This document shows positions 26,968 through 56,309 of a stretch of DNA of 60,482 bases, one piece after another. The notes below the pieces were generated by a model that saw only the letters and a list, made by a program, of their open reading frames with translations, was not told the DNA's origin and searched no databases. Each line of letters starts with the position of its first letter. Positions within the stretch are counted from its first letter, which is position 1. A program made the position numbers and the translations under genes. Source of the stretch: a virus (Duplodnaviria; Caudoviricetes); IMG/VR virus record IMGVR_UViG_3300042401_001867, positions 1 through 60,482 of that record; one strand, 5' to 3'.

Positions 26968-27018
26968 TGCACAATTCTCCCATATTTCCTGTAATTTAGG
27001 CGACAACAAATAATAACA

Positions 27019-29157: not shown

Positions 29158-29871
29158 TTAATCTTCTGAAAGTTCCTGATGGATTGATTTTTTTCTTTTC
29201 AGTTTTCCCAGCTCTTCTCGTAGAACTGTTCTTATTACACTTCTTTCCTGATTGGCTCTTCCTCTACGTCCGAGCGAAGTTGAGCCAGCCAAACGAGAAT
29301 AATCGCTCATATTTGTACATGGCATCCATACGGCTCTTCCTGTTTTCGAGATTCTCCTACTTATGCCAATGCACCCCATCTGACGCGAACGGGCACGGGC
29401 GGATTCAGGGTCGTTGAATACGTCTGGGTCATTATCTCTTATGTATTCAGGTCCGGTCATTGCCGCTTTGGCCATGCTTGCACCGAACATGTTCATGGTC
29501 GGACCACCAGAAATCGCAGAACCACTTGACACCCCAGACCCAACATCCTGTGGTGCCGAGAATTGACTCTGACCAGAAGTTACTCCAGGGCCAGAACCAT
29601 TAATTCCTTGTATCGGCCGTTCCCGAAGTTTTTCCCAGCCATCCCTTCGCTTCTTTTTCTTCTTGACAGGAATTTCATCTTTGACGATAGGGCTTTGTGC
29701 GGCAGATTTTTTTATCCAGTCATCGCTCTCGGCTCGCATCGATATTTTCTTAAGTGACTCCGGCGATGAACAGGGAGCCCAGTTGCCATCCTCGTCCTGA
29801 TGTGCGCCTCGGCAGCCAACCATCTCGGCAACTCTTAGTGCCTCAATCTTTTTTACTAGAGCACCAGGCAT
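29158..29871 (-). CDS. protein with two DUF3721-like GC.G.H...W.PC repeats
   Basis: AEMVGCRGAHQ...WAPC and SRQMGCIG...WMPC. Confidence 0.6.
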   Translation of the reverse strand: MPGALVKKIEALRVAEMVGCRGAHQDEDGNWAPCSSPESLKKISMRAESDDWIKKSAAQSPIVKDEIPVKKKKKRRDGWEKLRERPIQGINGSGPGVTSGQSQFSAPQDVGSGVSSGSAISGGPTMNMFGASMAKAAMTGPEYIRDNDPDVFNDPESARARSRQMGCIGISRRISKTGRAVWMPCTNMSDYSRLAGSTSLGRRGRANQERSVIRTVLREELGKLKRKKSIHQELSED

Positions 29872-36700: not shown

Positions 36701-39700
36701 TTGGTTTAACTTTTCCAAGTATTTGCTTTTCCCCAAGCGAACGAGGACCGAGGTCGCTCGATATGACAGAAGTGTCGGTGACGAGGTAGGCAGAACCCCT
36801 AAGGGTCCTCATCCATCTATCCAGGAATTCCCTATCCTTGACATCGTCATACTGTGGGCGTTGGCGCAACTTAGCCTCTACTTCGGTTCTGTATGTTGCA
36901 ATATCTTTCGGAATAACCGAGCCAGCATTTCTACCAAAGTAACCATCCGTATTGACGGGTTCAGATGCCGGATAAGCACTGACAAAACCAAATTTTCCCG
37001 CGCCTTGTACCGCTTCAAGGGTCTGCTCGTTGTTCTTTATTTGTGGTTTAAGTGACTCTAACTCAGAGTTTATCTTAGACAATGCCCCAGCGCTGCTCAT
37101 CCGGGTTATGTCGTATGCAATTCCTTCCTTAAATCCGACCGCACCCAGACTGGTTGTATCGACGTCCAGCAATTTATTGAGAAACGCTGCTTCAAGCGCG
37201 TCTTTCGGTGTGTAGGTTTTTTCGCCTTCGTTGAAGGACTTCAGTATTGATTCGGAAGACGTCAATGACTCCTTCAGTCTGTCGTTATCTCTTTTTAGAT
37301 TGGATATTTGGTTTTGATTTAACGCACCCGTATTTCCAACCCCGCCCACGGCACCCAACTCCTCGCCACCAGTGGTCTTGGATGGGTCCAATACACCTCC
37401 ATCAAGTTCTGATTGACCGACATGTACAACAGAACTCCCATAATCTTCTGGCGCTAGCTGTTCGTACTCATCAAGGAGAAGCTGAAAATCATCCGGAGTG
37501 ATGTCTTCAATATCTAGCGTATTTTGTTGCGCACGAACTTCTTTTGTTTTTGCAAGATGTTCAGCAAGAACAATTTCTTTTTTAGACCTATCGAGTTTTT
37601 CTTCTGCCAAATTCACCAAAAACTCTACACTTCCAAATCTTTTTTCTATTTCTTCTTTGGTTATGTTTACTGGTGGTGTATCTGCATCGAACTTTCCGAT
37701 ATCCCTTTTCCAATCAGGATGGTTGGTTATAACCACCCCAAATTCTTCGCCCCTCCATTCCCCAGTTCTTTCTAGAACATCAAGTGCTTTCTCTAGATTA
37801 GCAACTCTTTCCTTGGCTTTAACGGAGCGTTCTTGCAGTTCCGCGAGATTCGACTCAGCAGTGGGGAATGTCTGAGGAGAGTCGCTTCTTTTTCCGGAAG
37901 AAAGACCAGGAGAGGAACGCCTAGTCGCTGGATTAAGCCTTCTCTCAAGTCTTCTTCCAATTGCTCCACTCTCTAGAACGATGTCATCTGTTTCGGTTGG
38001 TAGCAGTTCTCCATCGTTGGCAAACTTCGTAAGTTGACTCTCAGTCATTCTGACACGAGGACGCTTGTCTACACCGGCATGGAATTCCGAAGCAGCGTCT
38101 TCGATATCTTTAATCAATGCTTCAGGTGACTTTCTTGCTATTTCGTTAGCAACGGCAGGGTCTAGAGAGTCCCTTGACATGTCGTTCGTTACCTCGGTAG
38201 GGCTCTCGCCAGCAAGAATCTTCTTTAGGTCACCCATCGCGATTTGCGCCCTACTTGTTCTAACTTCTTTTCTTTGCTCGCGTGTCTGCGGAATACCAAG
38301 AACCTCGCGCCCTGAAGTCGGGTCGGACGAGGAACCTGATGAAGTCTTGTAAGGAGCTTTCTTCTTTGAGCCAGACTTATGGTCAGGGTCAAAGTCCGCA
38401 GGTTTTGGGAGGCTCGAAATGTTTTCGCCACGCTTAGCAAGCTCTTCATCAATCGACCTTAGCGTCGCCCTGTCTTGTCCTTGAAATCCTCTCGGGTCAT
38501 TCGCGTAGTCTGGGTCAAGGAGGCTTCTGTACACAGCAGCTCTCCTGTTAACCAACTCATCGACAGTCATGTTGCTCTTAAGCTTCGCCATTGCGCGACC
38601 AGTTTTAGGGTCAACTTCGTCCGGCTTGATGTCTGCCTCGTCTGGCTGGATGAGGGGAGTCTTAACCAACTCTGCGACATAATCCTCGGACGGTGGCTCG
38701 CCAAACGAACCGCCAGCCTTAATTACTTCACGCTTTATTTCTGTATTCTTTTCTTCGATTTCCACTTCTCGTTTTGGTTTTGACCCAGTAGATGGCATGC
38801 CATTTTCTCTGCGTTTTGCAACGTATTTATTAGATACTCTGTCAATCTTCTTTTTCGTTCCCTTGGCGTTTTGGGAAGCACCAGGACCCTCTTCCCCAAT
38901 CGAGAACGAGACTCTGTCGAGCACATCAATAACGTTGTCTTGTTCCTGGACTCTGACGACAATGGTTCCGTCGGGTCTTGTGTCTACGACCCTCAACTTC
39001 CCAGGTGGGATGGTCAGCAAACCCTCTTCGCCAAGTGGAGTTTCTCGTGTTCCGAAAAGCCCTCTGTCCCCTTTCGATACCTGAACTATGACGCGGCTCT
39101 TTTCTTTTCCCTTCCTGGTCAGAATTTCGCCATTCCCATCACGCACTTCGCCCGGCTTATGGGGAGATTCTTCGCTAATTATTCTTCCCGTTAGCAAGCC
39201 AGGGTTGTCGAGGTTTTCTTCAATAAGTTTAAATCCGTTTTTGACATCAAAAAACATTTCTGCTTCTATCTCCATGTCGTCCGGAATACTTGACTCATCC
39301 ATTGCTTCCATTACTGGAATGAGTGTGCGCTCAATTTTGTCTTCTAGCGTTGCCGATTCACTCTCTGGGGATAAGTCGCCAGCACTCCGCTGAGCCCTTC
39401 TGTATTTTCTGTTTATGTTTTTTACGGCAGAAACGCTTGAATCCGGGTCAAGAAGATTTGCGATGTCCGACTGAGCAGGGTCGCCAAGCCTCTCGACAGC
39501 TTTAATCTCATCTGCAGTCATCAAAACTGCATTTTCTTTTTGCATCTTTTTTGCATATTTGGCTGCGGCGCTATCAGATTTTACTTTCTTGGTCTTCTTT
39601 ATCGCTTGTTGTCTTGGCGGATTTACAATCTCGTCAATTCGCGTATCAAGTTCTCTTCTTTTCTTCGACCACTCTTTAGCGTCTTCAGGATTTCCGAATC

Positions 39701-42398: not shown

Positions 42399-42414
42399 GG
42401 CGGGTCGCCCTTTC

Positions 42415-43833
42415 CTAGAGAGTATCTGTTTCTGCTTCGAGGAGCTGGAACTCAACAAGTGACTTCATAAAGTCTCCATCAAGAGTCTCATCGTCTTTCT
42501 TGCTCATTCCTTCTCCACCAGCAACCCAATTAGCAGGAATCAAATTTTCCTTGCCGAGTTCTTTTGCTCTCTTCATGATGTGCTTCTTTGTGGCGTCCTT
42601 GTCCTTTGCTCGTCCAAATGCTTGGACTGCGTTACGGAGGTCGGTCTCACTAGCAATCGGGTATGAGCCATCTGGCATTGCCGTTCCAGCTTCTGCCATT
42701 GAAGTGCGCTTGTCTTCACTGAAGGCTCTCTTCAGAGCAATTTCTGCAGCCTCTGCTTCAATGTCTTCTGATTCCTCTGGTTCGTACTTGTCGTAGCCAA
42801 GAACCTCACCGTCAAGAGCGACGAATACGTCGTATGACTTGCCATCGAATCCTTCGATTTCTACGGCGTAAGAATCTATGCCTTCAAAGTTATCTGGCTC
42901 GACAGCAACAACATGTCCGTCAATTGACTTGACTGCAATCTCTGCTGCATCGGTGAAGCTGATGAGGTTCAATTCGTCAATGGCTGCCTTTTGCTCAAAG
43001 ACACTTTCGTCAAGCTTGTGCCATCCCATAACTTCTGCTGATGTTCCATCAATGAAAACCTCAACTGCTTTTCCATCTTTTGCCTGAACATCAACAACGA
43101 ACATGTCGGCGTCTGGCGAGTAACCAGAGTCGATGACTTTTCCTTCAAACATGTCTTCGGCCATGCCTTCTGCCTCAAGCAAACCTGGCATTCCTTTTTC
43201 TGCAATGCAGCCACCTGGGCAGTCATCACAAACCGAAGTTGCACCATCATAGGACTTGCGCTCTATCGCGCAAACATAATCATGGTCACCGAAGTCTTCT
43301 GACTTAATTCCCATGGATGCGATTCTCTTCTTACGGAACTTGTCCATCATGAAATTGACCTTTTCGGCCTCTGCCATGTCCTCTTCGTCCTCGTTGTCCA
43401 TTTCGTCTTCTGTTAGTTCTTCTTCCTCTTCGTCTTCTTCAGACATTTCTTCGTCTTCTTCAGACATTTCTTCGTCTTCTTTTTTCTTAAACTTACGCAT
43501 GGCGGTGTTGATTTTCTCTTCACCCTCCATCATCTCTTCTTCTTCTTCTTCTTCTTCGGAATCCATATCTACACCCATGCCCATGCCCTTCATTGGCTTC
43601 TTTTTAGGCATCATCTCGTACATTTTTTCCATGTCTTCTTCTGACATCTCTTCATCAGCAATATCCAAATCAGTTGCTGGTACCATCTTCATCTCGACCG
43701 GCATTGCACCACACTTGCCGCACACCTTTGCGCCAGGCGTATAGCCACATGCAGATGCATCCAACCCCTTTGCGCATCTGAGCACAGCGCCTTCACTGTC
43801 GATGCCCACTGTTGTCTTGTCGTCGTAAGCCAT
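42415..43833 (-). CDS. acidic scaffold-like protein with PepSY-like repeats and C-terminal AMPDGSYPI domain
   Basis: Glu/Met-rich tract, Cys clusters, YAVEI...YDVFVALDGEVL, AMPDGSYPI...DLRNAVQAFGRA...HI.KRA. Confidence 0.7.
   Translation of the reverse strand: MAYDDKTTVGIDSEGAVLRCAKGLDASACGYTPGAKVCGKCGAMPVEMKMVPATDLDIADEEMSEEDMEKMYEMMPKKKPMKGMGMGVDMDSEEEEEEEEMMEGEEKINTAMRKFKKKEDEEMSEEDEEMSEEDEEEEELTEDEMDNEDEEDMAEAEKVNFMMDKFRKKRIASMGIKSEDFGDHDYVCAIERKSYDGATSVCDDCPGGCIAEKGMPGLLEAEGMAEDMFEGKVIDSGYSPDADMFVVDVQAKDGKAVEVFIDGTSAEVMGWHKLDESVFEQKAAIDELNLISFTDAAEIAVKSIDGHVVAVEPDNFEGIDSYAVEIEGFDGKSYDVFVALDGEVLGYDKYEPEESEDIEAEAAEIALKRAFSEDKRTSMAEAGTAMPDGSYPIASETDLRNAVQAFGRAKDKDATKKHIMKRAKELGKENLIPANWVAGGEGMSKKDDETLDGDFMKSLVEFQLLEAETDTL
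43427..43480 (-). repeat. in-frame 21-bp tandem repeat (EMSEEDE)
   Basis: TCTTCGTCTTCTTCAGACATT twice plus a partial copy. Confidence 0.8.
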
Positions 43834-43969: not shown

Positions 43970-46900
43970 TTAACGTTGTTTTCGTGAGTTGTCGCTAAGT
44001 TGAAGAAGTCTGGTCCATTGGGCTGGAGTCAAAAATCCCTTTGATTGAAACTGGGAGAAAACACTTTGGGCGAATCCGCTCCATCTGGCATTCTCGGCCC
44101 AACCAATCAATTCGTTTTGCATTCTTGGGGTTATATTCTCTGGCGCTCCATTGTTTTTACGGCCAGAGGAAAGGCTTTCGGTAGCTTGGTTCCCAGTGTT
44201 TGAGATTCTTCTAGCTGCGCGTCTTCCGCTGCTCATTGAAGAGCCACCCTTGATTGAATCAACGGTCTCGTCAAGGCCAAACTTCTTGTTCAGTCTGTCA
44301 ACTATTTCCTTAACTTCGTCGTCGTTGTATCGAAGGGCTTTTCCAACATTTTTGCTGAACTTCACTCCTCCGTCTTTCTCAAAAGCTTTGAGTCTCGTCT
44401 GAACCTTTGTTGCTCCAATTACATCATCCAACTCAGACCCCTTGGCCTTTATACCGGCTTTGGCAATAGCGTCACTAACCTTTTTCCAAAGGTCGAACTG
44501 CTTTATCGAATTGTCGAATTCAACACCGTCCTCACCGAAAATATCTCCAGCATTTGGAATAACTCCGCTTTCGACCAACTGTTCGATTACTCCGGTTGGG
44601 ATTCCGCTCCGCTTCCATTTCTTAATCTGGTCCTCTGTGGGCGTAATTCTCTCGCCATCAACCTCGAAGGTAAGTGCTTCTGCTATTTCTGCGATGGATT
44701 TTACTCCCAGTGCGTCCGTCAGGGTGGAGAGTCCAAAACCGCCTTTGGCCGTTTCTCTAGCGACGAACTGCTCGGTCACTTCGAATCCTTCTGGCGAAAG
44801 AATACCGTACATGGCGATTCCTTCATCCATGTAATCAGCGTATTCTTCGCGGCTTAACTGATTTCCCCTTCTGTAATCGTACCAATAAGGTTTTGAATCA
44901 AAACCCCAAATCGCCTCGATAGCCGAATCTGCCGCACCAAGGTCGGCACCATTAAAAAACATTCTGTCAACAAGGGTGTTCACATCAGCCTCGGAAATAG
45001 CAGCACCTGGAGCATTGAGTTTTTCTGCTTCTGCTTTGCTTATTCCCATAAGGGCGGCAATTTCGGTAGTGTCCAGAATTTCGCCATTATCATCTTTTAA
45101 TATGAGCTTGAGCTTGCTCGCATCTAGCATCCACTTGCCATCTGGCGACCTGTCGTTGTTCTCGGAAAGTTTTCCTACCTTTATGGAAGTGGCTGCAGAT
45201 ATCTGCTCCCCTATTCTTCTTCTCTTTGTTGAATCCGGGAACTTAAATCTTCCAGAACCAAGACCACCAACATCGAACTCATCCTTGCTTGGCGCCGGCT
45301 TTTTCTTTCCTGGGATTGTTGCTGCACGCTGTCTCACACCGTCTGCGAAAGCCTGACGGTCTTCGTCAGACATTGGTCGGCGCTTTGAGCCTTGCGTTCT
45401 CTTTTTTCTCCCAGAGCTAAGTCCTGGGTCGTTTCCTGGCTTAAGGAAATCGTTGACGTTGCCTTCGACTATGTCGGAGCCAGGGAGATTTCTGGACGCG
45501 AAAACATCTTTAGGCTTTCCGGTAATATCTTCTCTATCTGGATTTACTCCGCTATTTTCAAAGTCTATCTGAGTGTCGTACAGGCTGGTCAACTCTTTTT
45601 CAAGACCATTTACGGCGTTGTAGTAAAAGTTTTTTAGACTCGAAGCAAACTCTTCAGGAGATGTGTCTTTGTCTGTGGAGTCAATAAGTTTTTTGATTTC
45701 AGCTATTTGCTCCTCATACGAGACAGGGGAGGACCTATCCTCTGCATTGTCAACACCTTCGAGTGCTTCGATGATTGATTCCGCATCTCTTTTCATCCAG
45801 TAAAGAGCATCTTCGACATCTCCGTCAGCATCTTGAATATGTCGCTCCATCGTTGATTCAAAATCAACAACTTTTCCTCTACGGTTTGGATTTGCAAAGT
45901 TACTTTCTAGCTTCGCGATGCTCTCTTTCATTTCATCGATTTCATCGTTAAGGCTGGAAAATTGCTCTTCTCTCCAACTTAGTTGGTCATGAATGGCATC
46001 TATTGCATCGTCGATGTCTGTCAATAAGTCAAAGTCTTCGTCCGATACATTCGCATACTGGTCAATCTGGAAAATGTAAGCGTCAGCAGGCACCTTCTTG
46101 CCATCGAGCAGGGAGCGAATCAAATCATTTCTCAGGGCAACAAGTCTGTCGAGAGAGTTAACTGCTTCTTGGTGGTCTTCAAGGGCGATTCTTTGAACTG
46201 AACCACCTCTACCTTCCCTGCCTAGCGTTCCGCCAAAAGCGTTTTGCACAACCATGCTCTCGTATCTGGCGTCGTCTTCAATTTCCTTACGCACTTCATC
46301 AAGTGGTCTGACTTTTCCAGAACTCAATCTGTCTGAAGTGATATTTCTGGTTCTCTGCGCAGAGGAACGAGGAGCACCCTGTGGAACACCAGGCTGTGTT
46401 GGGTTGTATGGGGCATCTGCGCCATCAATTATCCCCTCAATCTTGTGAAGACTGAAGCTTCTGTATTGACCTGACTCTTCGTCAAGACCAATGAAATAGA
46501 CCCCTCCACCCTTCTTGGCCATCATCCCGGTTGGATAAACCATCCTTGGCTTACCGTTGTAATTGAATGAAACGACTTCTCCGTTTCTGCGTATGGCGTC
46601 GAAGTCATACTTCTCCACAGAAACCATCGGAAGGTTCAGAGCGATGTATCTTGCGTTTGAGCCAGCTTCATCGGTCCTCTTTAGGGCGTCTGTCACTAAA
46701 CGAATTTCTTCAACTGGCTTGTCGTCGTATCTTGAACGAGCACCCGAGGAGAACCTACTGTTATCTCTGGACAATTCGGCCTGAATATCGTTGGCCTCGT
46801 CGGCCCAGTCTTCTGGACTCCAATCAAGGCGCGATTCGTCTATCTCGGCAATCATTCGAACATACTCTCGCCTGTCCATGCGCTCACGAGAAATTAATTT

Positions 46901-49900
46901 TGAGTTTTCGTATTCAGAATCTCTACGCGCTTCTTCCTCGTTAAGCATTTCGGCAATTTTTTCAATGTCCGTCTCTTGTTTGAACTTCTTTAGCCATTCG
47001 CGTCGGCCGTCTTCGTAGTCAAGAGTCCATTGCGCAAGGTCTGCTGGGGACTTGAAGCCTTCGGAACTTATACCCGATACATCCCAGTCAATCTCGTTGT
47101 CTTCGCCGACACCGTCCATGAACATCAACTCTGCGAACCATTCACCGGAATCATCTTGACTCATACTCCACTGATTAACGCCTCTGTCGCCGAGGGATGC
47201 GCTTGCTTCGTAGTAGTTCTTGTCTCCATCACGATACGGTCTTATCATCGCGAATCTGTCCAACACTTCGTCGTCTGGCATGCCAAGTTCGTCGGCGAGA
47301 GTTCTTGCTGAACCATCGATATTCCTTATATATTTATCTCTCGCCCCAGACGAAAGCGAAGGAGCGATACCCCCATATGAGGAGTCTCCATTCCCAGGGA
47401 GAACACCAGCCTCAGCAACTTTTTTGCCGAGTTTCTTACTCATCGATGGTGACTTGCTTATTGCAAAGTCGTGAGCTTTTTGTGCTTGCTCAAACGCGCT
47501 CTTTAGAGCATCTGGGTCTGACCTAAGTTTCTTCAACCATGAAGCAAGGTATTGAGCGTGGTCTTCTCTTGGCTCTGGAGTTAAGCCGTGTGCCGTCATA
47601 AAGAATGCCGAAGCTATTTCTGCAACGAGTTCTTCCTGTGCGTACTCAGGGCTTCCAAAGTCACCCAGGTGGTCTCTGTTTAGACGGTCCTTATGTCCAG
47701 TCCAGTGCATCAGCTCATGAGCAAAAACTGCGTAATAAGCTTCCTTGCTCTTGAAAGAGGAGAATGGAGGGAGCGTTATTTCGTCTGTAGACGGTCTATA
47801 GAACGCTCTGTCACCGACATGGTTGACTATTGCACCAACTTCCGAGAGTGCTTTTTCGAGTTCGTCAACGCGCTCTTCTTCTGAGAGTTGCGGCATCTTG
47901 AATTGCTCTTTGTCAATTCCTTCTATCTGGTCAAGGTTGAATACGTGTCCTGTTTTGAAGAAGACCGAACCTGACTTGACTTCATTTCCGTCGGCATCTT
48001 TCTTTGCAGGAATGATTGTCGGGATGATTATCATCGTTCCCTTTTCACCCTTGCGAACTGTTCCGCCCTTTTCTTTCCACTGGTTGAAACCAGCCCATAT
48101 TCCGGTTTCGTAATTCATTGCGTCTTTTCTGAACATCAACATCAGTGAGTTGATTCCAGAGTATGGACGATTGTTATTCATGGCGTTACGCGGAAGAGAA
48201 GCATCTCTGTGCCAAGGGAATTCCCACTTGCCACCTTCTGTCTCTGCTTTTTGAATTTGTTCGATGAGCTGCTCTTGGACGCTTCTATAAACTTCGTCCA
48301 ACTTTCCTGAAGACAAACGCTGTCCAGGATTCATATCTCCGATTGGGCTTACGTACTTCTTTTCCCCAGACCCAAGAACATCCCCACCCTGTCTTGATAA
48401 CCAATAGTTTGCTTCCTTGTCTTGGTCGCGCATTAATTGGAGGTGTGTTTGCTCTATACGTCTAACCTGTTCACGCGTCATGCCGAGCGCCTTGGCTGTT
48501 TCAGCAAGAGATTCCCCTCCCATGCGACGGTTATAGACCGCCTCATTGAAGGACAGTTCTGCTGCTTCTTCGGCAGCCATGCGTGCCTGGTCTTCTCTGT
48601 ACGCCTCAATGTCATCGAGGTCTAGATTCTGCTGCGCTCCGCGCTGACGGGAGATATGGCGCAACTCTGCTTGACGGACTTCCTGACGCTTCATACCGAG
48701 TGCAGCACCAGTTTCGGCAAGTGTCTCTCCACCCATGCGGCGTTCGAATATTTCTCTGTCGGAAATTATTTGTTGTTCTTTATTTATCTTTCTTCCCGAC
48801 GAAAGATTTCGTGACTGACGGTTGTCATAAAGAGTTTCCTGGTCATCTTGATACAGGGCTGTTGCGGCTCTGGCAAAGTTTGTACTGAAGTCGTCGCCAT
48901 CCTCTTTGTATTCAGACAGGTACTCGTTCTGGCGGGAGTCGTTGTCGTACCAGTTTTCAAGAACTCTTTTTGCTTCATTCTCGCTTGAACCGAAATCAAT
49001 CAGAGCACTCGTAAGCTCCCGCTCCGTTTCTCTGTAATAGGCTTCATCTTCTAGGCCATCATCGTCATCACCAGCATCTGGCAAGCCATCAGAACGACCA
49101 GAGGAAAGCTTGCTATCTTTGTTCAACTCGTCGTATAGGGGGCCTCCCTTTTTGTAATAGTCGTAGTCTGGGCTGGCCTCATATTCGGCTACTGCTTTCA
49201 AAAAGTTCCGCATGTCCTCTTCGGACATGGAGTCGTTTATTGCGCCACTGAGATTGTAATTGGTTTCATGTGTGTAGTATCCTGGCTCACTGTAATCAGA
49301 TTTCTCAACACTGTATTTAGTGTTCAGGTAGTCCCAAACATCGTCTTGGTCACCGTAACTAACTAATTCTTCGTACACCTCTCTTTGAAGGTCGCTATCC
49401 TGTGGACCGCGACTAATTCCTCTTGCTATGTATCCTCTCTCGGCAGAAAGTCCATCAATTTCTTTTAGGCGTTGAGCCAATATCTCTTCTCGGTTTGGTT
49501 TGTCCTTGCCGCCAGAAGAAAGACCAGGCTTTTTGTTTTGACGATTCTTTAGTATTGAGGAAACTTCCCCGACAAACCTATCGGCGCTTTGGTTGTTGTT
49601 GAAACGTCCAACCTTCTTTCCATCAATCTCTAGGTCGACGGACCCGTTTGGCGCGCTGCGCATGTTCACAGAAAGACCAGAGCCGTCACCATCTAGCGAT
49701 TCCGCAAAGGACCTCGGCGAAGGAGGTGGTTTTCTTTTTCCCGAAGAGAATATGCCATCATCAAAATCACTCTGGTTTCTTCTCACGCCTCTTTCAAGCC
49801 TGTCTCTGGACCTTTGTTCGTCCGACATAAAATTTGCGCGGTACTGTGCGTCGAATAGAGCTTGCTGCAAATTCTCAAGAAACGCAAGTTTGTTTTGACC

Positions 49901-52900
49901 TTCTATGGACTCATCCACGGACATATCATCAATCATTTCTTCAACAGAACTGTTTATCCATGGCATGTCTTCATTTGCTGAAGCCCATCTTTCAACCGAT
50001 GCATCTAGCTGATTGTCAAATTCCCATTCTTCATCATCCCATCCATCGAAGCCATTGAGGAGCTTTTGCAGACTCTCGTCTGCAGCATCCATCTCCTCCT
50101 TGTCGGAGAGTTTTCGACCGGAAGACAAATTGGTATTACGGTCTTCGGAACCAGAAGAAGGCCTTCTCTTGTTTATCTCTCTTTGCAACGCATCAAATAG
50201 AAGTTCTTCGCTTCCAACTATGTCGGCTACATCCTCAACACTGGAAGGTGGGCTGAACGCTTTGTCCTTATTTTCTTCTTCCAGAATTTCAATCGCTCTA
50301 TCATAAAGATTAATATAAGGAAGACCTTCCTCTATTTGCTCCATTGAAAGACCATCTTCATCCGAAACGCCCTCTTCGGGGTCAATGCCGTCTGCGATGC
50401 TTCCTTCCATATCTCTTATGAATTTGTATCTAATGAAATCGGCCAGCTCTTCATCGGTTATTTCTTTGTCTGGAGTATAAGAATTTCCTTCTTTACCCAA
50501 CCACACCAGTCTTTGACCAGCAACCCTCTCGCCAAACTGTTCTTGAACTTCAGGTGCAAAATATTGTTGTCCTCTAAATATTTCTTTAAGGATTGCTTTT
50601 TGTTCTTCTTTGTCCCCAGATTCAAGTGCAGATTCAAGTGCAGCAAGTCTCCTCTCACGTTTAGTGCTCGCACCAGAAGAAAGACGTGATGCGCCACGGT
50701 ATGGCACAAAAGGTTTATCGATAGATTCATCCAAGGCTCTAGAAATTGCCTCTGGGTTTCTTTCTTCTGCTATTCGCTCAACGGGTTTTTCTTTGTAATC
50801 ACTAAATCCTGCTGGTTCCGGCTTTCGACTCTCCAGCTCTCTTCTTATTTCTTTTAGGCGATTTGTATTTTTGTATTTGTCGTCGGCGCTTTCTGGGCGC
50901 TTCCTATTTTTCAACTCCCAATATTCGTTAACGAGGTCGTCTGTTTTGGCCAGAGAGTCGGATGAACCAAGGTCAATAGGCTTTTTGTCATCCTTCCTTG
51001 GGGCAGAGCTCAACTTATCGCTACTACGGCGAGGCTTGGGGGTGTCTCCAGCGGAGCCAATATTGCTTGTGCGGCTTCGAGACCCGCGTGACCCATTTCG
51101 AGATGTTCTGTCGACGACCCCCTGGAAATACCGAGAGGCTTCCTGATTGAGTTTTTCTTGGTCTTTGGCATACCACTCTTGGTATGTCAACTTTCCGCCA
51201 CTACGGCTGTAGTTTTTCCATCTTCTTTCTAGGTCCCTTCTTGCATCCCCAGCAGGAAGGCTGTCTGGTTTTCCTCCGCGGCCAAGGCCGGTTGGCATAA
51301 CGGCTTCTTGTATTGCACGCACCAAGTCTTCATTGTTGGTATTACGGTCTTCAGAACCAGAAGAAAGCTTGCCTGTAGTCCTTTTCGGAGCCTCTGGCTT
51401 CTTTCCGCCCGACGAGAGTGAATCACGACTCTTCCTTGGTGCAGGCTTTTGAACACCATCGAGGAGACCAATGTCGTTCAGGTACTCATTCAGGGTGGCG
51501 ATATCATCCTTCGCCCAGTCCTGTGTGTCTGGGTATTTGGCTTTAACGTCATCTTTTAATGCAGACTCAATTCCGTCCCAGTTATCTGAGTCATCCTTGC
51601 TGTGTGCGTCAAGGTAAGCGCTAACAGATTTTGCGTAACTTGAATACCAGTTGCTGTACTCCTGCGAGGCCCTTGCCTTTTCGTTAAATTTTACAGGGCG
51701 CTTCCTCACGGAGTCGCCATCCCACATGACACGTGCTTGGTTGACACCAATTTCGCGACCGCGAAGATAGTCAGAACTAAAATTCTTATCTGCGTTATAG
51801 CGAGGGACTTCTTCCCATCCAAGACCTTGGTCTTCCCATGCTTTGGCGATTGCTTCGTGGTCTATGCGCTTTTGATTTTCCTCGGCGTTTGGAAACTGCT
51901 TTTCCATGTCGGCGGAGCGGTCTGCGTGTCTACGCTCATTTCTCTTTCCGCTAGAAAGTTTTTCTTTTCCATCTGGCTTTTTAGCGTCAGCAAGTTGGCG
52001 CTTAGATGGTTTTGGGTTATCGATTGAACCAGGACCGCTTGGAGTTGGGTCTGGCTGTTCCCATCCAGGAACATTGTCAAACAGTGTTCCGTCGAGGTTG
52101 CTGTCTCTACGGGTACGTGGGTCAAGGTCGCCAGATGGTATTCCCATCCCGCGTCCACCACGGCGCTTCTTTCCGCCGATACTAGGTCTGTCAATAGCAC
52201 GACCAGCAATTCTGCGGCCGAGTGCTTTTTCTTCTATATCCTCAGAGGCTATTTTTTTTTTTAAAAAACTATAAGCAGAAGCCGTAGCAGTGCTGATGGC
52301 ATCCTTTGATTCCTGGCTTAGTGGGGAGTTGATTACAATCCCGTACTCATTAACGATGGTATCAATTCTGTGATAATCAAGAACTGGGTCAATTATTGAC
52401 TTGAACTCAAAAGCATCTTCAGGATTAACTGGGATGACATATGAGTACTCGTGCGCCAAGAATGGGTCGAGACCCTTCTCTTCGAGCTCGCGCTCCTCTG
52501 TGCCCCACTCATCGAGAGTCTTGTATGACTTGCGCTTCTTTCTGCGCTTCTTAACAAGATTTCTGAAGGTTCCAAGAATAAATTCACCAGGGTATTTGGC
52601 TTCAATATCTTCAATCATCTTGATTTCTTCATCATCAAGGATGTCGCTGTATTCTTTTTTGCCAAATCCGACCACAACTCCGTCTGGAATAATTGCAAAT
52701 CTGCACTTGCCTTCATCCTCCACCTTCAAGTCGAGAATCTTGCACTTGCCCTCACCTAGATAGAGGACACAATTCGAGCACTTAACGCCAATGTTTTTTA
52801 CTTTGTTTTCTGCTGGCGGATAATATCCAGCCCAGATTCCGTCACCATCTTCGTCAAACTTTCCATACTTGCCAGCAATACGAACAAGCGATTGGGCAAG

Positions 52901-53920
52901 CTCGCTTTCCTCTGCGCCAAGCTCTGGTTTCTTTTTGTCTTCAGAACCTTCATATTGAACGGGGGTCAACGGAACCATAATCATTCCACCATTACCTGGC
53001 TTCATGGCAACAGGCATTGACATCGCAGGATTATTTGTTGAAGGCTTGTTCGGCTTGCCCATGATTCCAGGCATTGGAGACGGACCAGATTGAATTGCCG
53101 GTTTTGGCTGTTCTGCATGAATTAGTTCTGGCTTACCAAACATGTACTCACTTCCAGTGAAGTGGTATCCAATTCTGAATTTTCCTTTTCCAGGCTTAAC
53201 AAAAACTACAGAATTCTCTGTCGCCTCAACAACCATTACTGGTCCTGCGGCACGGCGCGAAAGCTCTGCAACCACACCAGCAAGCTGTGGTCCACTGATT
53301 CTCTGTGACATACCTTCGTCGAAGATTCCATCTCGTCGTGGTTCCGGCGATGTCGGAGCACCCATTACCATAGGCATCATTCCGTGCATTTTCTCTTCGT
53401 CGCTCTTGACCGAGATTGTTCCAGTCAGTTGATTTGCGCCATGAAGAACAGGTGATACTTCGTAGAGTTCCACTTCGTAGAGGACGTTTGCTTGAAGGTT
53501 GTCATCGTATTGCGCTCTAAGGGTTTTGTACCCAATCGACCACTCTTGCTCTTCGCCAAAGAAAGCGACGTTTGCAAACGCTTCTTTGCCTTTTTCTGAC
53601 TGAAGGTTGAACTGCACCTTTGCGTACAGACCACCAATTCCAGCCATCTTCATCTTCATTGGGAGTCTTTGGTCCGATGCTGGGACTTCGTAAATTTCTA
53701 GAACTTTACCAATTGGGTCGTTCCAGTTGTGACCCCAGACAACGCGAGGCTTGCGGCGTTGAAGGCTCTTGGCGAATGCGCCAGTAGCACAGATGTCGCC
53801 AACGGAGTCTTTATTGCCAATTCCGGAAACGAAACATTCGACAATACCCTCTAGTTCATCTAGTTTGATGAGACCATTCGAGGCCTTGTATTGAATGTTT
53901 CCGAAGTTAGAGTTTGGCAT
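43970..53920 (-). CDS. HK97-family prohead protease fused to a ~2750-aa LSSG-punctuated modular array (ArdC, WYL, HTH and others)
   Basis: N terminus GNKDSVGD...GAF, WGHNWNDPIG, WSIGY, ELYEVSPV..GAN; 20 LSSG-type linkers; ArdC motifs YSGIN, VRKGEKG, VFNLDQ, HELMHW. Confidence 0.9.
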   Translation of the reverse strand: MPNSNFGNIQYKASNGLIKLDELEGIVECFVSGIGNKDSVGDICATGAFAKSLQRRKPRVVWGHNWNDPIGKVLEIYEVPASDQRLPMKMKMAGIGGLYAKVQFNLQSEKGKEAFANVAFFGEEQEWSIGYKTLRAQYDDNLQANVLYEVELYEVSPVLHGANQLTGTISVKSDEEKMHGMMPMVMGAPTSPEPRRDGIFDEGMSQRISGPQLAGVVAELSRRAAGPVMVVEATENSVVFVKPGKGKFRIGYHFTGSEYMFGKPELIHAEQPKPAIQSGPSPMPGIMGKPNKPSTNNPAMSMPVAMKPGNGGMIMVPLTPVQYEGSEDKKKPELGAEESELAQSLVRIAGKYGKFDEDGDGIWAGYYPPAENKVKNIGVKCSNCVLYLGEGKCKILDLKVEDEGKCRFAIIPDGVVVGFGKKEYSDILDDEEIKMIEDIEAKYPGEFILGTFRNLVKKRRKKRKSYKTLDEWGTEERELEEKGLDPFLAHEYSYVIPVNPEDAFEFKSIIDPVLDYHRIDTIVNEYGIVINSPLSQESKDAISTATASAYSFLKKKIASEDIEEKALGRRIAGRAIDRPSIGGKKRRGGRGMGIPSGDLDPRTRRDSNLDGTLFDNVPGWEQPDPTPSGPGSIDNPKPSKRQLADAKKPDGKEKLSSGKRNERRHADRSADMEKQFPNAEENQKRIDHEAIAKAWEDQGLGWEEVPRYNADKNFSSDYLRGREIGVNQARVMWDGDSVRKRPVKFNEKARASQEYSNWYSSYAKSVSAYLDAHSKDDSDNWDGIESALKDDVKAKYPDTQDWAKDDIATLNEYLNDIGLLDGVQKPAPRKSRDSLSSGGKKPEAPKRTTGKLSSGSEDRNTNNEDLVRAIQEAVMPTGLGRGGKPDSLPAGDARRDLERRWKNYSRSGGKLTYQEWYAKDQEKLNQEASRYFQGVVDRTSRNGSRGSRSRTSNIGSAGDTPKPRRSSDKLSSAPRKDDKKPIDLGSSDSLAKTDDLVNEYWELKNRKRPESADDKYKNTNRLKEIRRELESRKPEPAGFSDYKEKPVERIAEERNPEAISRALDESIDKPFVPYRGASRLSSGASTKRERRLAALESALESGDKEEQKAILKEIFRGQQYFAPEVQEQFGERVAGQRLVWLGKEGNSYTPDKEITDEELADFIRYKFIRDMEGSIADGIDPEEGVSDEDGLSMEQIEEGLPYINLYDRAIEILEEENKDKAFSPPSSVEDVADIVGSEELLFDALQREINKRRPSSGSEDRNTNLSSGRKLSDKEEMDAADESLQKLLNGFDGWDDEEWEFDNQLDASVERWASANEDMPWINSSVEEMIDDMSVDESIEGQNKLAFLENLQQALFDAQYRANFMSDEQRSRDRLERGVRRNQSDFDDGIFSSGKRKPPPSPRSFAESLDGDGSGLSVNMRSAPNGSVDLEIDGKKVGRFNNNQSADRFVGEVSSILKNRQNKKPGLSSGGKDKPNREEILAQRLKEIDGLSAERGYIARGISRGPQDSDLQREVYEELVSYGDQDDVWDYLNTKYSVEKSDYSEPGYYTHETNYNLSGAINDSMSEEDMRNFLKAVAEYEASPDYDYYKKGGPLYDELNKDSKLSSGRSDGLPDAGDDDDGLEDEAYYRETERELTSALIDFGSSENEAKRVLENWYDNDSRQNEYLSEYKEDGDDFSTNFARAATALYQDDQETLYDNRQSRNLSSGRKINKEQQIISDREIFERRMGGETLAETGAALGMKRQEVRQAELRHISRQRGAQQNLDLDDIEAYREDQARMAAEEAAELSFNEAVYNRRMGGESLAETAKALGMTREQVRRIEQTHLQLMRDQDKEANYWLSRQGGDVLGSGEKKYVSPIGDMNPGQRLSSGKLDEVYRSVQEQLIEQIQKAETEGGKWEFPWHRDASLPRNAMNNNRPYSGINSLMLMFRKDAMNYETGIWAGFNQWKEKGGTVRKGEKGTMIIIPTIIPAKKDADGNEVKSGSVFFKTGHVFNLDQIEGIDKEQFKMPQLSEEERVDELEKALSEVGAIVNHVGDRAFYRPSTDEITLPPFSSFKSKEAYYAVFAHELMHWTGHKDRLNRDHLGDFGSPEYAQEELVAEIASAFFMTAHGLTPEPREDHAQYLASWLKKLRSDPDALKSAFEQAQKAHDFAISKSPSMSKKLGKKVAEAGVLPGNGDSSYGGIAPSLSSGARDKYIRNIDGSARTLADELGMPDDEVLDRFAMIRPYRDGDKNYYEASASLGDRGVNQWSMSQDDSGEWFAELMFMDGVGEDNEIDWDVSGISSEGFKSPADLAQWTLDYEDGRREWLKKFKQETDIEKIAEMLNEEEARRDSEYENSKLISRERMDRREYVRMIAEIDESRLDWSPEDWADEANDIQAELSRDNSRFSSGARSRYDDKPVEEIRLVTDALKRTDEAGSNARYIALNLPMVSVEKYDFDAIRRNGEVVSFNYNGKPRMVYPTGMMAKKGGGVYFIGLDEESGQYRSFSLHKIEGIIDGADAPYNPTQPGVPQGAPRSSAQRTRNITSDRLSSGKVRPLDEVRKEIEDDARYESMVVQNAFGGTLGREGRGGSVQRIALEDHQEAVNSLDRLVALRNDLIRSLLDGKKVPADAYIFQIDQYANVSDEDFDLLTDIDDAIDAIHDQLSWREEQFSSLNDEIDEMKESIAKLESNFANPNRRGKVVDFESTMERHIQDADGDVEDALYWMKRDAESIIEALEGVDNAEDRSSPVSYEEQIAEIKKLIDSTDKDTSPEEFASSLKNFYYNAVNGLEKELTSLYDTQIDFENSGVNPDREDITGKPKDVFASRNLPGSDIVEGNVNDFLKPGNDPGLSSGRKKRTQGSKRRPMSDEDRQAFADGVRQRAATIPGKKKPAPSKDEFDVGGLGSGRFKFPDSTKRRRIGEQISAATSIKVGKLSENNDRSPDGKWMLDASKLKLILKDDNGEILDTTEIAALMGISKAEAEKLNAPGAAISEADVNTLVDRMFFNGADLGAADSAIEAIWGFDSKPYWYDYRRGNQLSREEYADYMDEGIAMYGILSPEGFEVTEQFVARETAKGGFGLSTLTDALGVKSIAEIAEALTFEVDGERITPTEDQIKKWKRSGIPTGVIEQLVESGVIPNAGDIFGEDGVEFDNSIKQFDLWKKVSDAIAKAGIKAKGSELDDVIGATKVQTRLKAFEKDGGVKFSKNVGKALRYNDDEVKEIVDRLNKKFGLDETVDSIKGGSSMSSGRRAARRISNTGNQATESLSSGRKNNGAPENITPRMQNELIGWAENARWSGFAQSVFSQFQSKGFLTPAQWTRLLQLSDNSRKQR
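50130..51365 (-). repeat. 30-bp dispersed direct repeat (50130-50159 and 51336-51365) encoding SSGSEDRNTN
   Basis: TTGGTATTACGGTCTTC[G/A]GAACCAGAAGAA, 29/30 identical. Confidence 0.9.
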
Positions 53921-54039
53921 AGCGCTCCTTGGTTCTAAACGATATTAGAGCAACAAAGAACACGCTCACAGCAAGTATCTCCATAAATTAAAATACTTTC
54001 AGTAAAAGAAATGGAAATCTGTTGTTTTACTGAAACTCG

Positions 54040-56106
54040 CTAAATGAACTGCCCGAACTTCCAAGCTCTTCTTGATTCATCCTCTGCTAATTCAAATCTT
54101 TGCTTAGCCATCAAGTTCGCATACATGCTCACGAGTGCTCCCCTAAACGAGGCAGCCCGTTCTTCTTCACCCATCACCGAAAGTGAATTGAACATAATAG
54201 AAGAGACATTGTTAAAATTCTCTATATTTATGTTCTTTATTCTTATCATTTGCGAATTTATCTGGGCATTTAGGTCGGACTGGTTCATGGTCTTGGCGGT
54301 CTTGTTCCCGTATGCGCTGTTGTAAGTATTGTAAGCGTCCTGGATAATCGCCGAAATAACAGGTCTAATATCCTCGTCCATCTGTTTGTCCCATACTTCA
54401 GGGGACAGGATTGAGTCTATTTCTAGCGTCCCAGCAAACAGTGATTTCTTGGCTTTTGAGCCGCCTGCCTTCTCTAGGACAACTCTCTGTTGTCTCTCGA
54501 CCACTCTCTCGATACTCCGATTGAGAATTTCATTCCACCTATCAAGCGACTCTGTGCTCTTGGATTGAAGTTCATCTTCTATGGATTTATACATCATTTC
54601 CCCAGTTGTCGCAGAAGCTGCCCCCGCTGGAACTGGCTCTGCAGTTGTCGCGACCGCAGCCAGTGCTTCTGGTGGGATTGTGCTTTGGGCGAGTTGGTCT
54701 GGACCTGCTGGCGCCGCTGGGGCTTGTGTTTCTGCAAGGGCCCCCTGCATTGTGTTCGGGTCAAGTGGTGGTTGACCCTCCATTCCAGGCATTGGGACCT
54801 CTGGCATCGGAGCCCCAGGGACCGGAGCGCCAGGAGCGCCACCCATTTCAACGGACGGCTTATCTTCCATTTTCTTCTTAGTGTTAGCAATAGGAATGAG
54901 GTTTGGATTCATGAGCAGTGAGTCGGCAAGGTCGGCTTCTACTTCTTTTCTTCCGGAGCCGGTTCGGTACTCGTTGTTACTGATGAGCCCAGATTGGAAT
55001 TCCTGCATCAGGTACCTCTCTCGCTCTTGTTTGTAGAGTTGGAGAATTGGCACTTCTCTTGTGTCAAAGTCAACGTAATACTCTTCATCCAGTTCGTCGA
55101 GCGAGCGAGCAAGTGGCTCTAGATGGGGGAGCATTGTCTCCATCCAGAAAACGCGTATTTCTTCGCTTGCATTGGAAAATGTTCTTCCTGCAGCATTGCC
55201 AATTACCGATTCTGGGACACCGAACGAAGCAAGAATTTCTTCCTTGGTAATTTGTCGCATTTGCGCGTAAGCGACATCTCTTGGTGAGGCAGAAGTGTCG
55301 ACGTAGTCAACTCCATCATCAGCGGAGATGACAGTTGTGTGTCCAGCCCTTCCGATGTTTCCACGGAACCTGCTCTTTAGCTCCTCTTTATCGTCGTCGT
55401 CAATTTCTCCACGAAGAACCAAAAGACCGCCTGGCCTTCCATCGTTTAGCAGGTAGTTCCTGTTGTAGAGCTTTGCAAGGTTTTCTATTTCAATAGCAAC
55501 ACCAGCAGACTCAAGTGGGGTTAGAGACAGGTATGGGTCTAGTGGGTGTGGTCGTCTAATCCAGCACACGTCCTCTGGCTTCATGATTACTTTTTGACCA
55601 TAAGGCATTTGAACTTCATATCCAGAAACAAACTTTTTTGCATCTGGTATTGGTGATGTTGATTGTGGAGGCAGAAGATTGAGTCCAATGATTCGTCCGT
55701 CCCTGCCACGAACCTTCTCAATGAATACACCACGAGTACCGAGCAGCAACTGTGCCGACATTCTGTATCTAAAAATAAACGAGTTTTCGCCAATGTTTGA
55801 TTTAGTGTTCAAAACCTCAAGCAAAGAATTGTTTTTCGCCTTATTGCCAATGAGTATTTCTCCAGTTGGAGAGTTGTCTTTTCGCAGGATGATTGGCAGA
55901 CGCGCCTGGTTTCCAGCAATTGCATCAATACATCTAGCCACCCACGTGACCTTCTGCATGCCTTCTCGGTATGCGCGCTCAACATCCCACGAGTCTCGAT
56001 ATGGTCTTCCTGCGTAGCTTGGATTCTGCGCTACGGGCGCGCCGGGTCCAAGCTCCTTGGACTGCGCATTTGCGAGTGATTTATTACTCGATTGATTCCA
56101 TGCCAT
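54040..56106 (-). CDS. portal protein (HK97 family) with Pro-rich linker and C-terminal extension
   Basis: WVARCIDAIA...LP, SLTPLESA, N.GRPGG, EILASFGVPESVIG, SNNEYR. Confidence 0.92.
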   Translation of the reverse strand: MAWNQSSNKSLANAQSKELGPGAPVAQNPSYAGRPYRDSWDVERAYREGMQKVTWVARCIDAIAGNQARLPIILRKDNSPTGEILIGNKAKNNSLLEVLNTKSNIGENSFIFRYRMSAQLLLGTRGVFIEKVRGRDGRIIGLNLLPPQSTSPIPDAKKFVSGYEVQMPYGQKVIMKPEDVCWIRRPHPLDPYLSLTPLESAGVAIEIENLAKLYNRNYLLNDGRPGGLLVLRGEIDDDDKEELKSRFRGNIGRAGHTTVISADDGVDYVDTSASPRDVAYAQMRQITKEEILASFGVPESVIGNAAGRTFSNASEEIRVFWMETMLPHLEPLARSLDELDEEYYVDFDTREVPILQLYKQERERYLMQEFQSGLISNNEYRTGSGRKEVEADLADSLLMNPNLIPIANTKKKMEDKPSVEMGGAPGAPVPGAPMPEVPMPGMEGQPPLDPNTMQGALAETQAPAAPAGPDQLAQSTIPPEALAAVATTAEPVPAGAASATTGEMMYKSIEDELQSKSTESLDRWNEILNRSIERVVERQQRVVLEKAGGSKAKKSLFAGTLEIDSILSPEVWDKQMDEDIRPVISAIIQDAYNTYNSAYGNKTAKTMNQSDLNAQINSQMIRIKNINIENFNNVSSIMFNSLSVMGEEERAASFRGALVSMYANLMAKQRFELAEDESRRAWKFGQFI

Positions 56107-56108
56107 AT

Positions 56109-56309
56109 TTACTCAAGACCTAATAGGAAGCCAAAAAACCCACACGTTATGCCTGCCACTATAAATCCGGCGGGTAGAAATATCATTGCCGAACCAACAC
56201 TGGTAAACAGTATAAATGAAACCATGAACAAATTGGCGAATGTAGGCCGTTTAAATAAAGATTTGATTCTCGGTGATAAACTTTTGACTCTTGGTGGTGT
56301 TTTTGACAT
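56109..56309 (-). CDS. small membrane protein upstream of portal
   Basis: Two hydrophobic segments, IFLPAGFIVAG; leaderless start after TACTGT. Confidence 0.7.
   Translation of the reverse strand: MSKTPPRVKSLSPRIKSLFKRPTFANLFMVSFILFTSVGSAMIFLPAGFIVAGITCGFFGFLLGLE

Follow-up and report, generated by a model that had tools for sequence, protein, structure and literature searches.

An N-terminal prohead protease fused to a motif-punctuated array of exchangeable modules in uncultured tailed phages, a candidate system for virion cargo

The protease-array gene and its motif

We describe a giant head-module gene in a 60,482-base stretch of viral DNA from IMG/VR (record IMGVR_UViG_3300042401_001867), which we refer to as the window; the completeness estimate of this contig is ~40%. 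Open reading frame 1 (ORF1; 43970..53920, on the minus strand, as are all features below unless stated otherwise) is a single open frame encoding a protein of 3,316 amino acids (aa), and its full-length orthologs on viral contigs measure 3,057-3,710 aa. The protein opens with an HK97-type prohead protease and continues into a long array of modules punctuated by a four-residue motif, most often LSSG. We propose that this motif may be a site at which the array is processed in the phage head.

Residues 26-176 (53393..53845) match Pfam PF04586 (Peptidase_S78; 37.6 bits, cut-off 21) and PHROG 80, 'head maturation protease' (E 3e-25). Matches to Pfam and PHROG thus bear out the HK97-type protease named in a first-pass annotation of the window, as they do the ArdC-type module and the twin sigma-region-4-like helix-turn-helix (HTH) units that it had placed further along the chain. 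His64 (53729-53731, within WGHNW) and Ser128 (53537-53539, within WSIGY), the presumed catalytic pair by analogy with HK97 gp4, are both at least 98% invariant in 202 family sequences, and both have equivalents in gp30 of a Gordonia phage. Within the first 172 residues, 109 positions reach this level, a figure biased toward conservation because the word-based searches that gathered the sequences used conserved words. No solved structure matches the protease region (residues 1-660) in sequence. The domain is followed by a conserved post-protease region, residues 181-657 (51950..53380), which holds a Cys-rich stretch and a basic tract and lacks the motif; over residues 1-657 the mean identity across nine orthologs is 86%. 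At residues ~380-420 (52660-52780) a four-Cys pattern, C-x2-C ... C-x-(n)-C, is followed by KKRRKKRK and could be a zinc ribbon. The near-frozen protease contrasts with the arrays fused to it, which are among the most variable sequences that we have seen.

The commonest four-residue word of the ORF1 protein is LSSG, found 13 times against 0.136 expected from composition (5,000 shuffles gave a mean of 0.14 and a maximum of 4). The residue before each of the 17 SSG triplets of the protein is L (13), F (2), M (1) or P (1), and the two positions that follow the motif are mostly R or K. The positions listed by the first-pass annotation are all correct, both for the 13 LSSG copies, which share this one frame, and for the variants FSSG (49739, 46742), LGSG (48365, 45251), MSSG (44225), PSSG (50150) and LSSA (51002). 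Its total of 20 linkers falls to 18 robust ones: LSSA, at residue 970, has no aligned motif in orthologs, and PSSG, at residue 1254, is the degenerate copy of a duplicated piece. Codons do vary between copies, with 12 distinct 12-mers among the 13 LSSG, and the second giant frame of the window, ORF2, does carry further copies (three LSSG, an FSSG and a TSSG). In a six-frame translation of the window, the two giant ORFs account for 16 of 22 LSSG; the primase frame has one more, and the other five belong to short frames of 49-196 aa. The relaxed form [LFM][SGA][SA]G occurs 18 times in ORF1 (1.33 expected), six times in ORF2 (1.12 expected), twice in the primase and once in the major capsid protein (MCP), and is absent from the other 30 of the 34 window ORFs examined. 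Array modules begin G-[KR]-[KR] with no separate start codon; ORF1 runs through them continuously.

The first motif, LSSG at residue 655 (51947..51958), marks the border between protease unit and array and is LSSG in all ten aligned sequences. It is followed by a conserved module (residues 658-837; 51410..51949; 79% mean identity to orthologs) and then by a hypervariable cassette region (residues 838-1708; 48797..51409), in which mean identity per module is only 0.09-0.39. Motifs within this region lie at 51407, 51356, 50672, 50117, 49739, 49511 and 49097, with weak copies at 51002 and 50150. The string SSGSEDRNTN appears twice here (51335-51367 and 50129-50161, after residues 852 and 1254), a short duplication that includes the motif and whose second copy has decayed to PSSG. 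The region closes on LSSG at residue 1706 (48794..48805), kept in seven of ten aligned sequences, replaced by FASG in one and missing with the region in two.

Several modules of the remaining array have recognizable relatives. The twin HTH module (residues 1710-1848; 48377..48793) matches Pfam Sigma70_r4 in two stretches (27.6 bits, cut-off 24.1) and ends at a double site, LGSG at 1849 and LSSG at 1869 (48305..48376), with a 16-residue spacer and 20 residues between the assumed cuts. Site 1869 is LSSG in ten of ten sequences and site 1849 varies (LGSG, FSSG, LSSG, RSSG, FASA). The ArdC-type module that follows (47357..48304) joins ArdcN (residues 1876-1994; Pfam E 6e-26) to MPTase-PolyVal (residues 2020-2142; E 7e-42) and has an intact HELMH at residue 2068 (47705-47719). 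The PHROG 7245 anti-restriction profile covers residues 1873-2164, beginning directly after LSSG 1869-1872. The next motif, LSSG at residue 2189 (47345..47356), is present in ten of ten aligned sequences, and its L, S, S and G are invariant in the 31 rows of a second alignment, A1, that spans residues 1700-2540. Between it and FSSG at residue 2390 (46742..46753; LSSG in eight orthologs, FSAG in one) lies an acidic module (residues 2193-2389; 46754..47344) with no family match, whose cut-to-cut segment, 2192-2392, has a net charge of -25.

A tentative WYL-like module occupies residues 2394-2531 (46328..46741); the first-pass annotation had named it, and its Pfam WYL score of 20.4 bits falls below the cut-off of 21.8. 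The motif at residue 2532 (46316..46327) is kept in ten of ten aligned sequences, once as FSSG. An acidic, coiled-coil-like module comes next (residues 2536-2833; 45422..46315), with a net charge of -36 over segment 2535-2836 and only sub-threshold matches to Laminin_II and Prefoldin. That the acidic modules carry strong net negative charge stands, and the suggestion that they mimic DNA has no other basis. LSSG at 2834 and LGSG at 2887 (45251..45421; L/F-S-S/A-G variants in orthologs) enclose a 53-residue basic module of pI 10.6, and residues 2891-3228 (44237..45250) form a module without family match that is 25-61% identical in seven loci. A second double site, MSSG at 3229 and LSSG at 3250 (44162..44236), has a 17-residue spacer and 21 residues between the assumed cuts; orthologs carry L/M-SSG at the former and LSSG, LASG or LSAG at the latter. 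The chain ends in a 63-residue basic module (43973..44161), which forms the very C-terminus in 37 hits and is internal in others, including relatives with the second motif dialect described below.

Conservation, module borders and breadth of the family

The motif is conserved among orthologs at aligned positions, as the first-pass annotation had required of its proposal. A scan of viral contigs gave 32 loci with relatives at 47-100% identity. Seven complete orthologs of the same dialect hold 11-14 LSSG each, two ORFs that run off contig ends hold 10 and 16, and a more distant ortholog has four LSSG among 11 SSG. In an alignment of ten sequences the motif is present in all ten at residues 655, 1869, 2189 and 2532, while other aligned sites interchange LSSG, FSSG, MSSG, LGSG, LASG, LSAG and FSAG. 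Mean identity to the window across nine orthologs is 0.54, 0.59, 0.65 and 0.72 in the four motif columns; the five columns to either side reach only 0.22-0.47. At the DNA level a single orthologous site shows six to eight distinct 12-mers with switches between the TCN and AGY serine codons; site 655 alone has eight distinct 12-mers in 27 loci, TCT, AGT and AGC among its serine codons. This diversity indicates that selection acts on the peptide. A DNA-level repeat, considered as a candidate, was rejected on the same 12-mer diversity.

Motifs sit at domain borders, in hydrophilic and disorder-prone surroundings; Pfam borders, flank composition and homology breakpoints agree on this point. Across three family proteins, in which Pfam envelopes cover 14-30% of the chain, none of 58 motif sites lies inside an envelope, where ~14 would be expected. 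ArdcN starts three to four residues past a site in three of three proteins, and a ~600-aa helicase block is uninterrupted, its flanking sites lying at 19-24 residues in one protein and 21-114 in the other. Compared with random positions, the flanks of 12 residues on either side have a more hydrophilic character (z -4.8), more disorder-promoting residues (z 4.7), more K/R (z 5.1) and fewer hydrophobic residues (z -5.4), and no random set among 5,000 was equally extreme.

Clustering of the pieces obtained when the proteins are cut at the motif separates a conserved frame from the hypervariable region at residues 838-1708. The frame consists of the protease unit, the 180-aa module and, later in the chain, the HTH pair, the ArdC module, an acidic module, the WYL-like module and three more. 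Hypervariable modules recur in relatives in other sets and orders, each bounded by motifs, and three families are reordered between the window and one relative (L012). The orthologs thus gain, lose and reorder modules exactly at motifs, the comparison that the first-pass annotation had called for. The same borders emerge when proteins are not cut beforehand. In comparisons of the window protein with 101 relatives, 48% of 514 BLAST homology ends fall within 10 aa of a motif (12% for random positions), as do 45% of the 242 unique positions. These patterns support the capture of new modules by recombination at the linkers.

The motif exists in two dialects. Among 211 long protease ORFs, a set that includes near-copies and truncated ORFs, 146 have at least four [LFM]SSG (dialect A; mean 11.8, 0.18 expected), 39 have at least four G[LFM][RAS]S (dialect B; mean 7.7, 0.42 expected), 12 are weak and 14 have none, the last being short (~1,000-1,200 aa) or incomplete. 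Logos from 1,043 and 172 distinct contexts read [RK]-Φ-S-S-G-[RKA]-[RK] and R-G-Φ-[ARS]-S-x, where Φ is L, F or M; their only common elements are the hydrophobic residue and a serine two positions on. A tree of 63 de-duplicated protease domains splits at 99/97 support into one half with 38 dialect A members, three hybrids (G-L-[SA]-S-G) and one weak member, and another with 13 dialect B members, four without motif and four weak. Kin share dialect labels, which points to concerted change across whole clades and does not prove co-evolution with the protease.

A large clade of uncultured phages is defined by this architecture. A word-indexed search of proteins of 1,823-5,803 aa found at least 274 with the N-terminal protease, a count that, like others for the family, includes near-copies and contig-end fragments. 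The 120 of these that were listed are 70-100% identical over residues 1-200, measure 1,944-4,736 aa and lie on contigs of up to 170 kb; the S78 domain is N-terminal in all 120. A second contig scan added 308 viral-contig stretches, and complete records of 148-172 kb exist. Cargo domains of relatives, listed or confirmed, include a UvrD-type helicase, DEAD, AAA_30, pentapeptide repeats, KTSC and RNase_T. Four relatives (P0057, P0061, P0086 and P0114) have arrays with pentapeptide-repeat modules. Pentapeptide-repeat folds occur in the DNA-mimicking proteins Qnr and MfpA. As DNA mimics these modules are stronger candidates than the window's own, which are simply acidic.

Shorter forms are also common: 1,046 proteins fall below 1,823 aa, many of them cut at contig ends, and the lengths of the 120 listed among them cluster at ~420-500 aa (30) and ~950-1,300 aa (52). 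Contigs of 57-180 kb carry stand-alone forms of ~460-610 aa whose C-termini fall within the conserved post-protease region, short of the position of the window's first motif. As these short forms stop ahead of the first motif, the array looks like an extension behind a complete protease unit. Relatives with short arrays (L105-L115; ~1,065 aa) have a KPEP/PKPE repeat with one or two motifs, and their ORF2 homologs keep GLAS- or GMAS-type motifs. They may represent early stages of array growth.

ORF2, the capsid protein and the surrounding head genes

The second giant protein of the head module, ORF2 (33708..42458; 2,916 aa), carries motifs LSSG at 37893, 36486 and 35349 and FSSG at 34713. Sites at its residues 1519, 2367 and 2579 are conserved with L/F swaps, and the stretch between them is variable. 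Its listed TTG start overlaps the end of a 472-aa ORF by 44 bases (42398-42458); translation probably begins at an ATG 20 codons further on (M-T-G-E-P-F-F), because relatives begin M-T-G-K or M-E-P-A-M-T-G-K. The N-terminal 1,500 residues are otherwise unassigned and contain HEIAH at residues 568-572 (40743-40757). An HExxH at residues ~506-694 is present in eight of eight BLAST-matched relatives and in nine of nine further lineages (17 sequences), and this domain may be an unrecognized metallopeptidase packaged in the head.

The MCP (27629..29005) has the HK97 fold (Pfam Phage_capsid E 1e-41; HK97-type MCPs in the PDB, E 7e-51). Its single relaxed motif match aside, the capsid protein has a candidate maturation site, LSSR at residues 94-97 (28715..28726), which is suggestive only. 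At this aligned position clade MCPs, with that of locus L039 left aside, read L-x-S in nine of 11 cases (QLSSR, QLTSR, SLGSS, GLGSQ), and the site lies three to four residues ahead of the homology to solved HK97-type MCPs, which starts at residue 100. Unusual neighbours for a head module flank the capsid gene (26356-27552 and 29158-29871): DUF6321, an Asp/Arg beta-hydroxylase-family protein and a protein with two DUF3721 repeats.

The genes run from a terminase on the plus strand to, on the minus strand, the portal, ORF1, the 472-aa acidic protein, ORF2, small ORFs and the HK97-fold capsid protein. The portal gene (54040..56106; Pfam Phage_portal E 1e-48; PHROG portal E 4e-60) lies immediately upstream of ORF1, so that the S78 gene stands between portal and MCP, the latter downstream on the same strand; four other lineages are alike. 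The order portal, protease-array, scaffold-like protein and ORF2, with the MCP further on, is kept in every lineage inspected. The remaining genes of the window are an ordinary phage replication set comprising helicase, primase, ribonucleotide reductase and thymidylate synthase.

Among cultured phages, the Gordonia Chidiebereviruses, GMA6, DalanDe and Brevibacterium phage Cantare come nearest, with capsid proteins 47% identical. Their proteases match residues 4-212 only, and the Gordonia protease is 34-40% identical over residues 21-212. By protein comparison no cultured-phage record spans more than 31% of ORF1 residues 1-660, and none shares the protease-array architecture; a megablast of 52000-56200 against cultured phages gave no match, and a host and prophage search of genome contigs with residues 1-660 returned 48 pattern hits and no relatives.

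These cultured relatives suggest where the array was inserted. The 501-aa 'capsid maturation protease' gp30 of Gordonia phage ChisanaKitsune consists of the protease, an acidic region and a C-terminal domain, and a 92-aa stretch at its C-terminal end shares 49% identity (E 2e-24) with the end of the 472-aa ORF (42415..43833; C-terminal domain 42520-42795), an acidic protein that lacks the motif. Because the gp30 C-terminal domain matches the end of this ORF, the array appears to occupy the junction of an ancestral protease-scaffold fusion; the 472-aa protein looks like the scaffold half of that fusion, with the array now intervening. Its sequence is very acidic, with E and D runs, and has two Cys-rich stretches. 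The ~90-aa C-terminal domain also ends the 'capsid maturation protease' of the Gordonia Chidiebereviruses, GMA6 and DalanDe, as well as the portal of Caudovirales GX15bay and some Microbacterium and Bacteroides phage proteins. A capsid-protein identity for the 472-aa ORF was rejected, since it has no capsid match and resembles a scaffold.

Readings of the motif and their meaning

We propose that the fused S78 protease cuts at the motif within the procapsid and so releases the modules as cargo. On balance we consider this proposal probable, by a modest degree, given the arrangement and conservation described above. The protease unit, that is the S78 domain with its ~480 conserved residues, would enter the procapsid as prohead proteases do, carrying the C-terminal array with it. 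The array would comprise ~18 independently folding modules on short hydrophilic linkers with a hydrophobic-x-Ser core. Once the shell has assembled, the protease would cut ~18 sites in ORF1, four to five in the C-terminal half of ORF2 and perhaps the delta-domain junction of the MCP, releasing modules of 50-340 residues and, from closely spaced sites, peptides of 11-21 residues. Kept in the head with the DNA, the modules would then reach the host and act there as early factors of counter-defence and takeover. No peptidase other than the S78 domain occurs in every array, and the near-frozen sequence of this domain fits an enzyme tied to dozens of substrates; its near-invariance may reflect the constraint that so many substrates impose. 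Clean logos in both dialects, together with a split of dialects that follows the protease tree, fit one reader shared across the family.

If the motif is cut, we prefer the register L-S-S↓G. Bacterial ClpS recognizes N-terminal L and F as degradation signals under the N-end rule, and glycine is stabilizing; a cut before L or F would thus expose residues that ClpS recognizes. The herpesvirus assemblin consensus, (V/L/I)-X-A↓S, has a hydrophobic P3 and a small P1, the same form as L-S-S↓G.

Several observations weigh against this proposal. At 370 kDa, the cargo on each protease copy would be expected to strain a capsid that holds a genome of ~150-170 kb, unless few such copies are present. The first 654 residues are free of motif, so the protease would stay joined to ~480 extra residues. 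No protease position separates the dialects at the 90% level in 202 sequences, a result subject to the same bias toward conservation as the invariance figures, and the dialect shift is thus unexplained by any visible change in the protease. The word-based searches behind the family counts favour conserved proteases. The MCP site lacks the glycine, fails in two of 11 lineages (GLDRS, SVYGS) and follows the dialects only imperfectly. Finally, the ORF2 HExxH domain is a credible trans-acting reader that fits the motif equally well.

That last point leads to the most credible alternative, which we nonetheless regard as unlikely: the motif would be cut by a metallopeptidase, mainly the ORF2 HExxH (~residue 570) acting in trans in the head or after ejection, or else by the ArdC MPTase or a host protease, with the cut before L, F or M. 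Many zincins prefer a hydrophobic P1' residue, and apart from the serine it is the hydrophobic class alone that is fixed in both dialects, while no residue of the protease tracks them. The conservation of the ORF2 HExxH in both sets of relatives and the intact HELMH of the ArdC MPTase fit this idea, and MPTase-mediated release of polyvalent domains has been proposed by Iyer et al. 2017 (PMC5512222). Against it, neither Pfam nor PHROG assigns the ORF2 region to a peptidase, so that a bare HExxH is all that is seen there, and 5-13 motifs each are kept by the 26 of 120 full-length proteins that have neither ArdC/MPTase nor any HExxH, which excludes the ArdC MPTase as a general reader. The L-x-S form at the MCP junction in nine of 11 lineages also speaks for the S78 enzyme, as removal of the delta domain is the classical task of a prohead protease, and the pairing of hydrophobic P3 with small P1 resembles motifs of the assemblin and prohead protease superfamily.

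Less likely again is that the motif is never cut. It would then be a flexible hinge, a word by which the chain docks on the capsid interior, the portal or DNA, or a target of serine modification, in a giant tethered protein like the N4 virion RNA polymerase. Any reader acting in trans would leave the same conservation, border position and lineage-wide dialects, and the basic flanks could serve DNA binding. Pure linkers, however, do not normally keep a fixed four-residue word through switches of serine codon family; the 11-21 residues between double sites make little sense for docking and are typical of processing by proteases; and the sole domain that co-occurs universally with the motif is a protease.

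We give still less weight to a scheme in which the array is cut without being cargo, an oversized scaffold or core cleared before or during packaging whose domains are relics or act in the producer cell. A protease-scaffold fusion is indeed ancestral in the nearest cultured relatives (Gordonia gp30), many modules are strongly acidic in the manner of scaffolds, and capsid volume would be limiting. Yet the gene directly downstream encodes a distinct scaffold-like protein that has the ancestral C-terminal domain. Cassettes of ArdC, HTH, UvrD-type helicase, pentapeptide-repeat and exonuclease type play no part in building the shell and correspond to what injected polyvalent proteins carry, and their rapid turnover is a signature of conflict genes, not of a scaffold. 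Chance, low complexity or a DNA-level recombination signal, to which clustered homology breakpoints and the use of CTT for Leu in nine of 13 LSSG might point, is effectively refuted by 13 copies against 0.14 expected, a shuffle maximum of 4, 12 distinct 12-mers and 1,043 distinct peptide contexts.

Elements of the proposed scheme are familiar from other viruses. Chidieberevirus gp30, herpesvirus UL26 assemblin-scaffold, lambda C/Nu3 and P2 gpO are protease-scaffold fusions in which an N-terminal assemblin-fold protease is covalently linked to procapsid-filling material that is cut free, as the array would be here. In those fusions the scaffold measures a few hundred residues, whereas ORF1 carries ~3,100 residues of exchangeable, effector-type domains with ~18 sites. 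The ArdC anti-restriction protein of IncW plasmids has the same succession of ArdcN and a zincin MPTase with HExxH; here that unit lies inside a phage head polyprotein as one motif-bracketed module, and 26 of 120 members lack it.

Phage T4 loads diverse anti-restriction internal proteins into its prohead, where gp21 trims them at a short motif before they are injected with the DNA, according to the portions of PMC3012670 and PMC5694885 that treat them. The function proposed here would resemble theirs in cargo loading, protease trimming and injection. The T4 proteins are encoded by separate genes, with an N-terminal targeting peptide, and cut after Glu by an S77 protease; ORF1 has a covalent fusion, an S78 enzyme and a motif without Glu. 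Cleavage by SPN3US gp245 occurs after A-X-E with Ser preferred at P1', and by the T4 and phiKZ proteases after Glu, as reported in sections of PMC10052503 and PMC5694885. The same sections describe phiKZ and SPN3US enzymes (gp175 and gp245) that process head and ejection proteins, remove long propeptides at multiple sites and cut off their own C-terminal part. Their P3-P1 tripeptide would be comparable in form to the hydrophobic-P3, small-P1 motif of ORF1, although their substrates are separate genes that lose N-terminal propeptides, with no effector polyprotein and with another motif and protease family. The literature on T5 pb11 yielded nothing usable on S78 specificity.

The closest precedent is the class of polyvalent proteins described by Iyer, Burroughs, Anand, de Souza and Aravind in 2017 (PMC5512222). 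The text of that paper proposes that embedded peptidases free polyvalent domains, by analogy with RNA-virus polyproteins, and places assemblin-like peptidases always at the C-terminus and with limited distribution. ORF1 shares with the polyvalent proteins treated there a giant multidomain form, virion-gene context, ArdC-N with a zincin MPTase, HTHs, helicases and domain mosaicism; its own chain joins many effector-type domains (S78, two Sigma70_r4, ArdcN, MPTase and a weak WYL) within a virion-structural neighbourhood. It departs from them in its assemblin-like peptidase, N-terminal here and C-terminal there. We found no inter-domain cleavage motif in the text of Iyer et al., where 'linker' occurs 0 times and 'cleavage' three times. 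A full-text literature search likewise found no N-terminal prohead-protease polyprotein and no LSSG-type motif, with the supplement and FTP architecture lists of Iyer et al. 2017, which could hold an N-terminal example, outside its scope. The novelty claimed by the first-pass annotation therefore narrows: an N-terminal prohead protease with a punctuating motif was not found in print, while domain release by embedded peptidases had already been proposed (PMC5512222).

We tentatively extend our proposal to a polyprotein strategy for virion cargo, a generalization that is plausible, if short of probable. The protease would serve as the encapsidation anchor, and the linker code would make any inserted domain automatically packaged, released and injected. 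The invariant protease would hold the code in place while arrays grow from ~460 to 4,700 aa by capture of linker cassettes. Wide occurrence, sharp definition and a direct route to testing give the system its interest. If the motif is a cut site, it would offer an engineering handle, with foreign proteins brought into capsids by fusion to the protease unit through a four-residue linker. Double-stranded DNA phages would then follow a polyprotein logic associated until now with RNA viruses and retroviruses, with an enzyme frozen by its many substrates. The motif would also be the first sequence-readable rule for the proteins that an abundant clade of uncultured phages, with genomes of ~150-170 kb, loads and injects, and its 1,043 contexts would turn hundreds of unknown modules into a catalogue of candidate early anti-defence effectors. 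Should the cargo reading prove true, these phages would possess a natural, evolvable, plug-and-play system of protein delivery in a double-stranded DNA virus.

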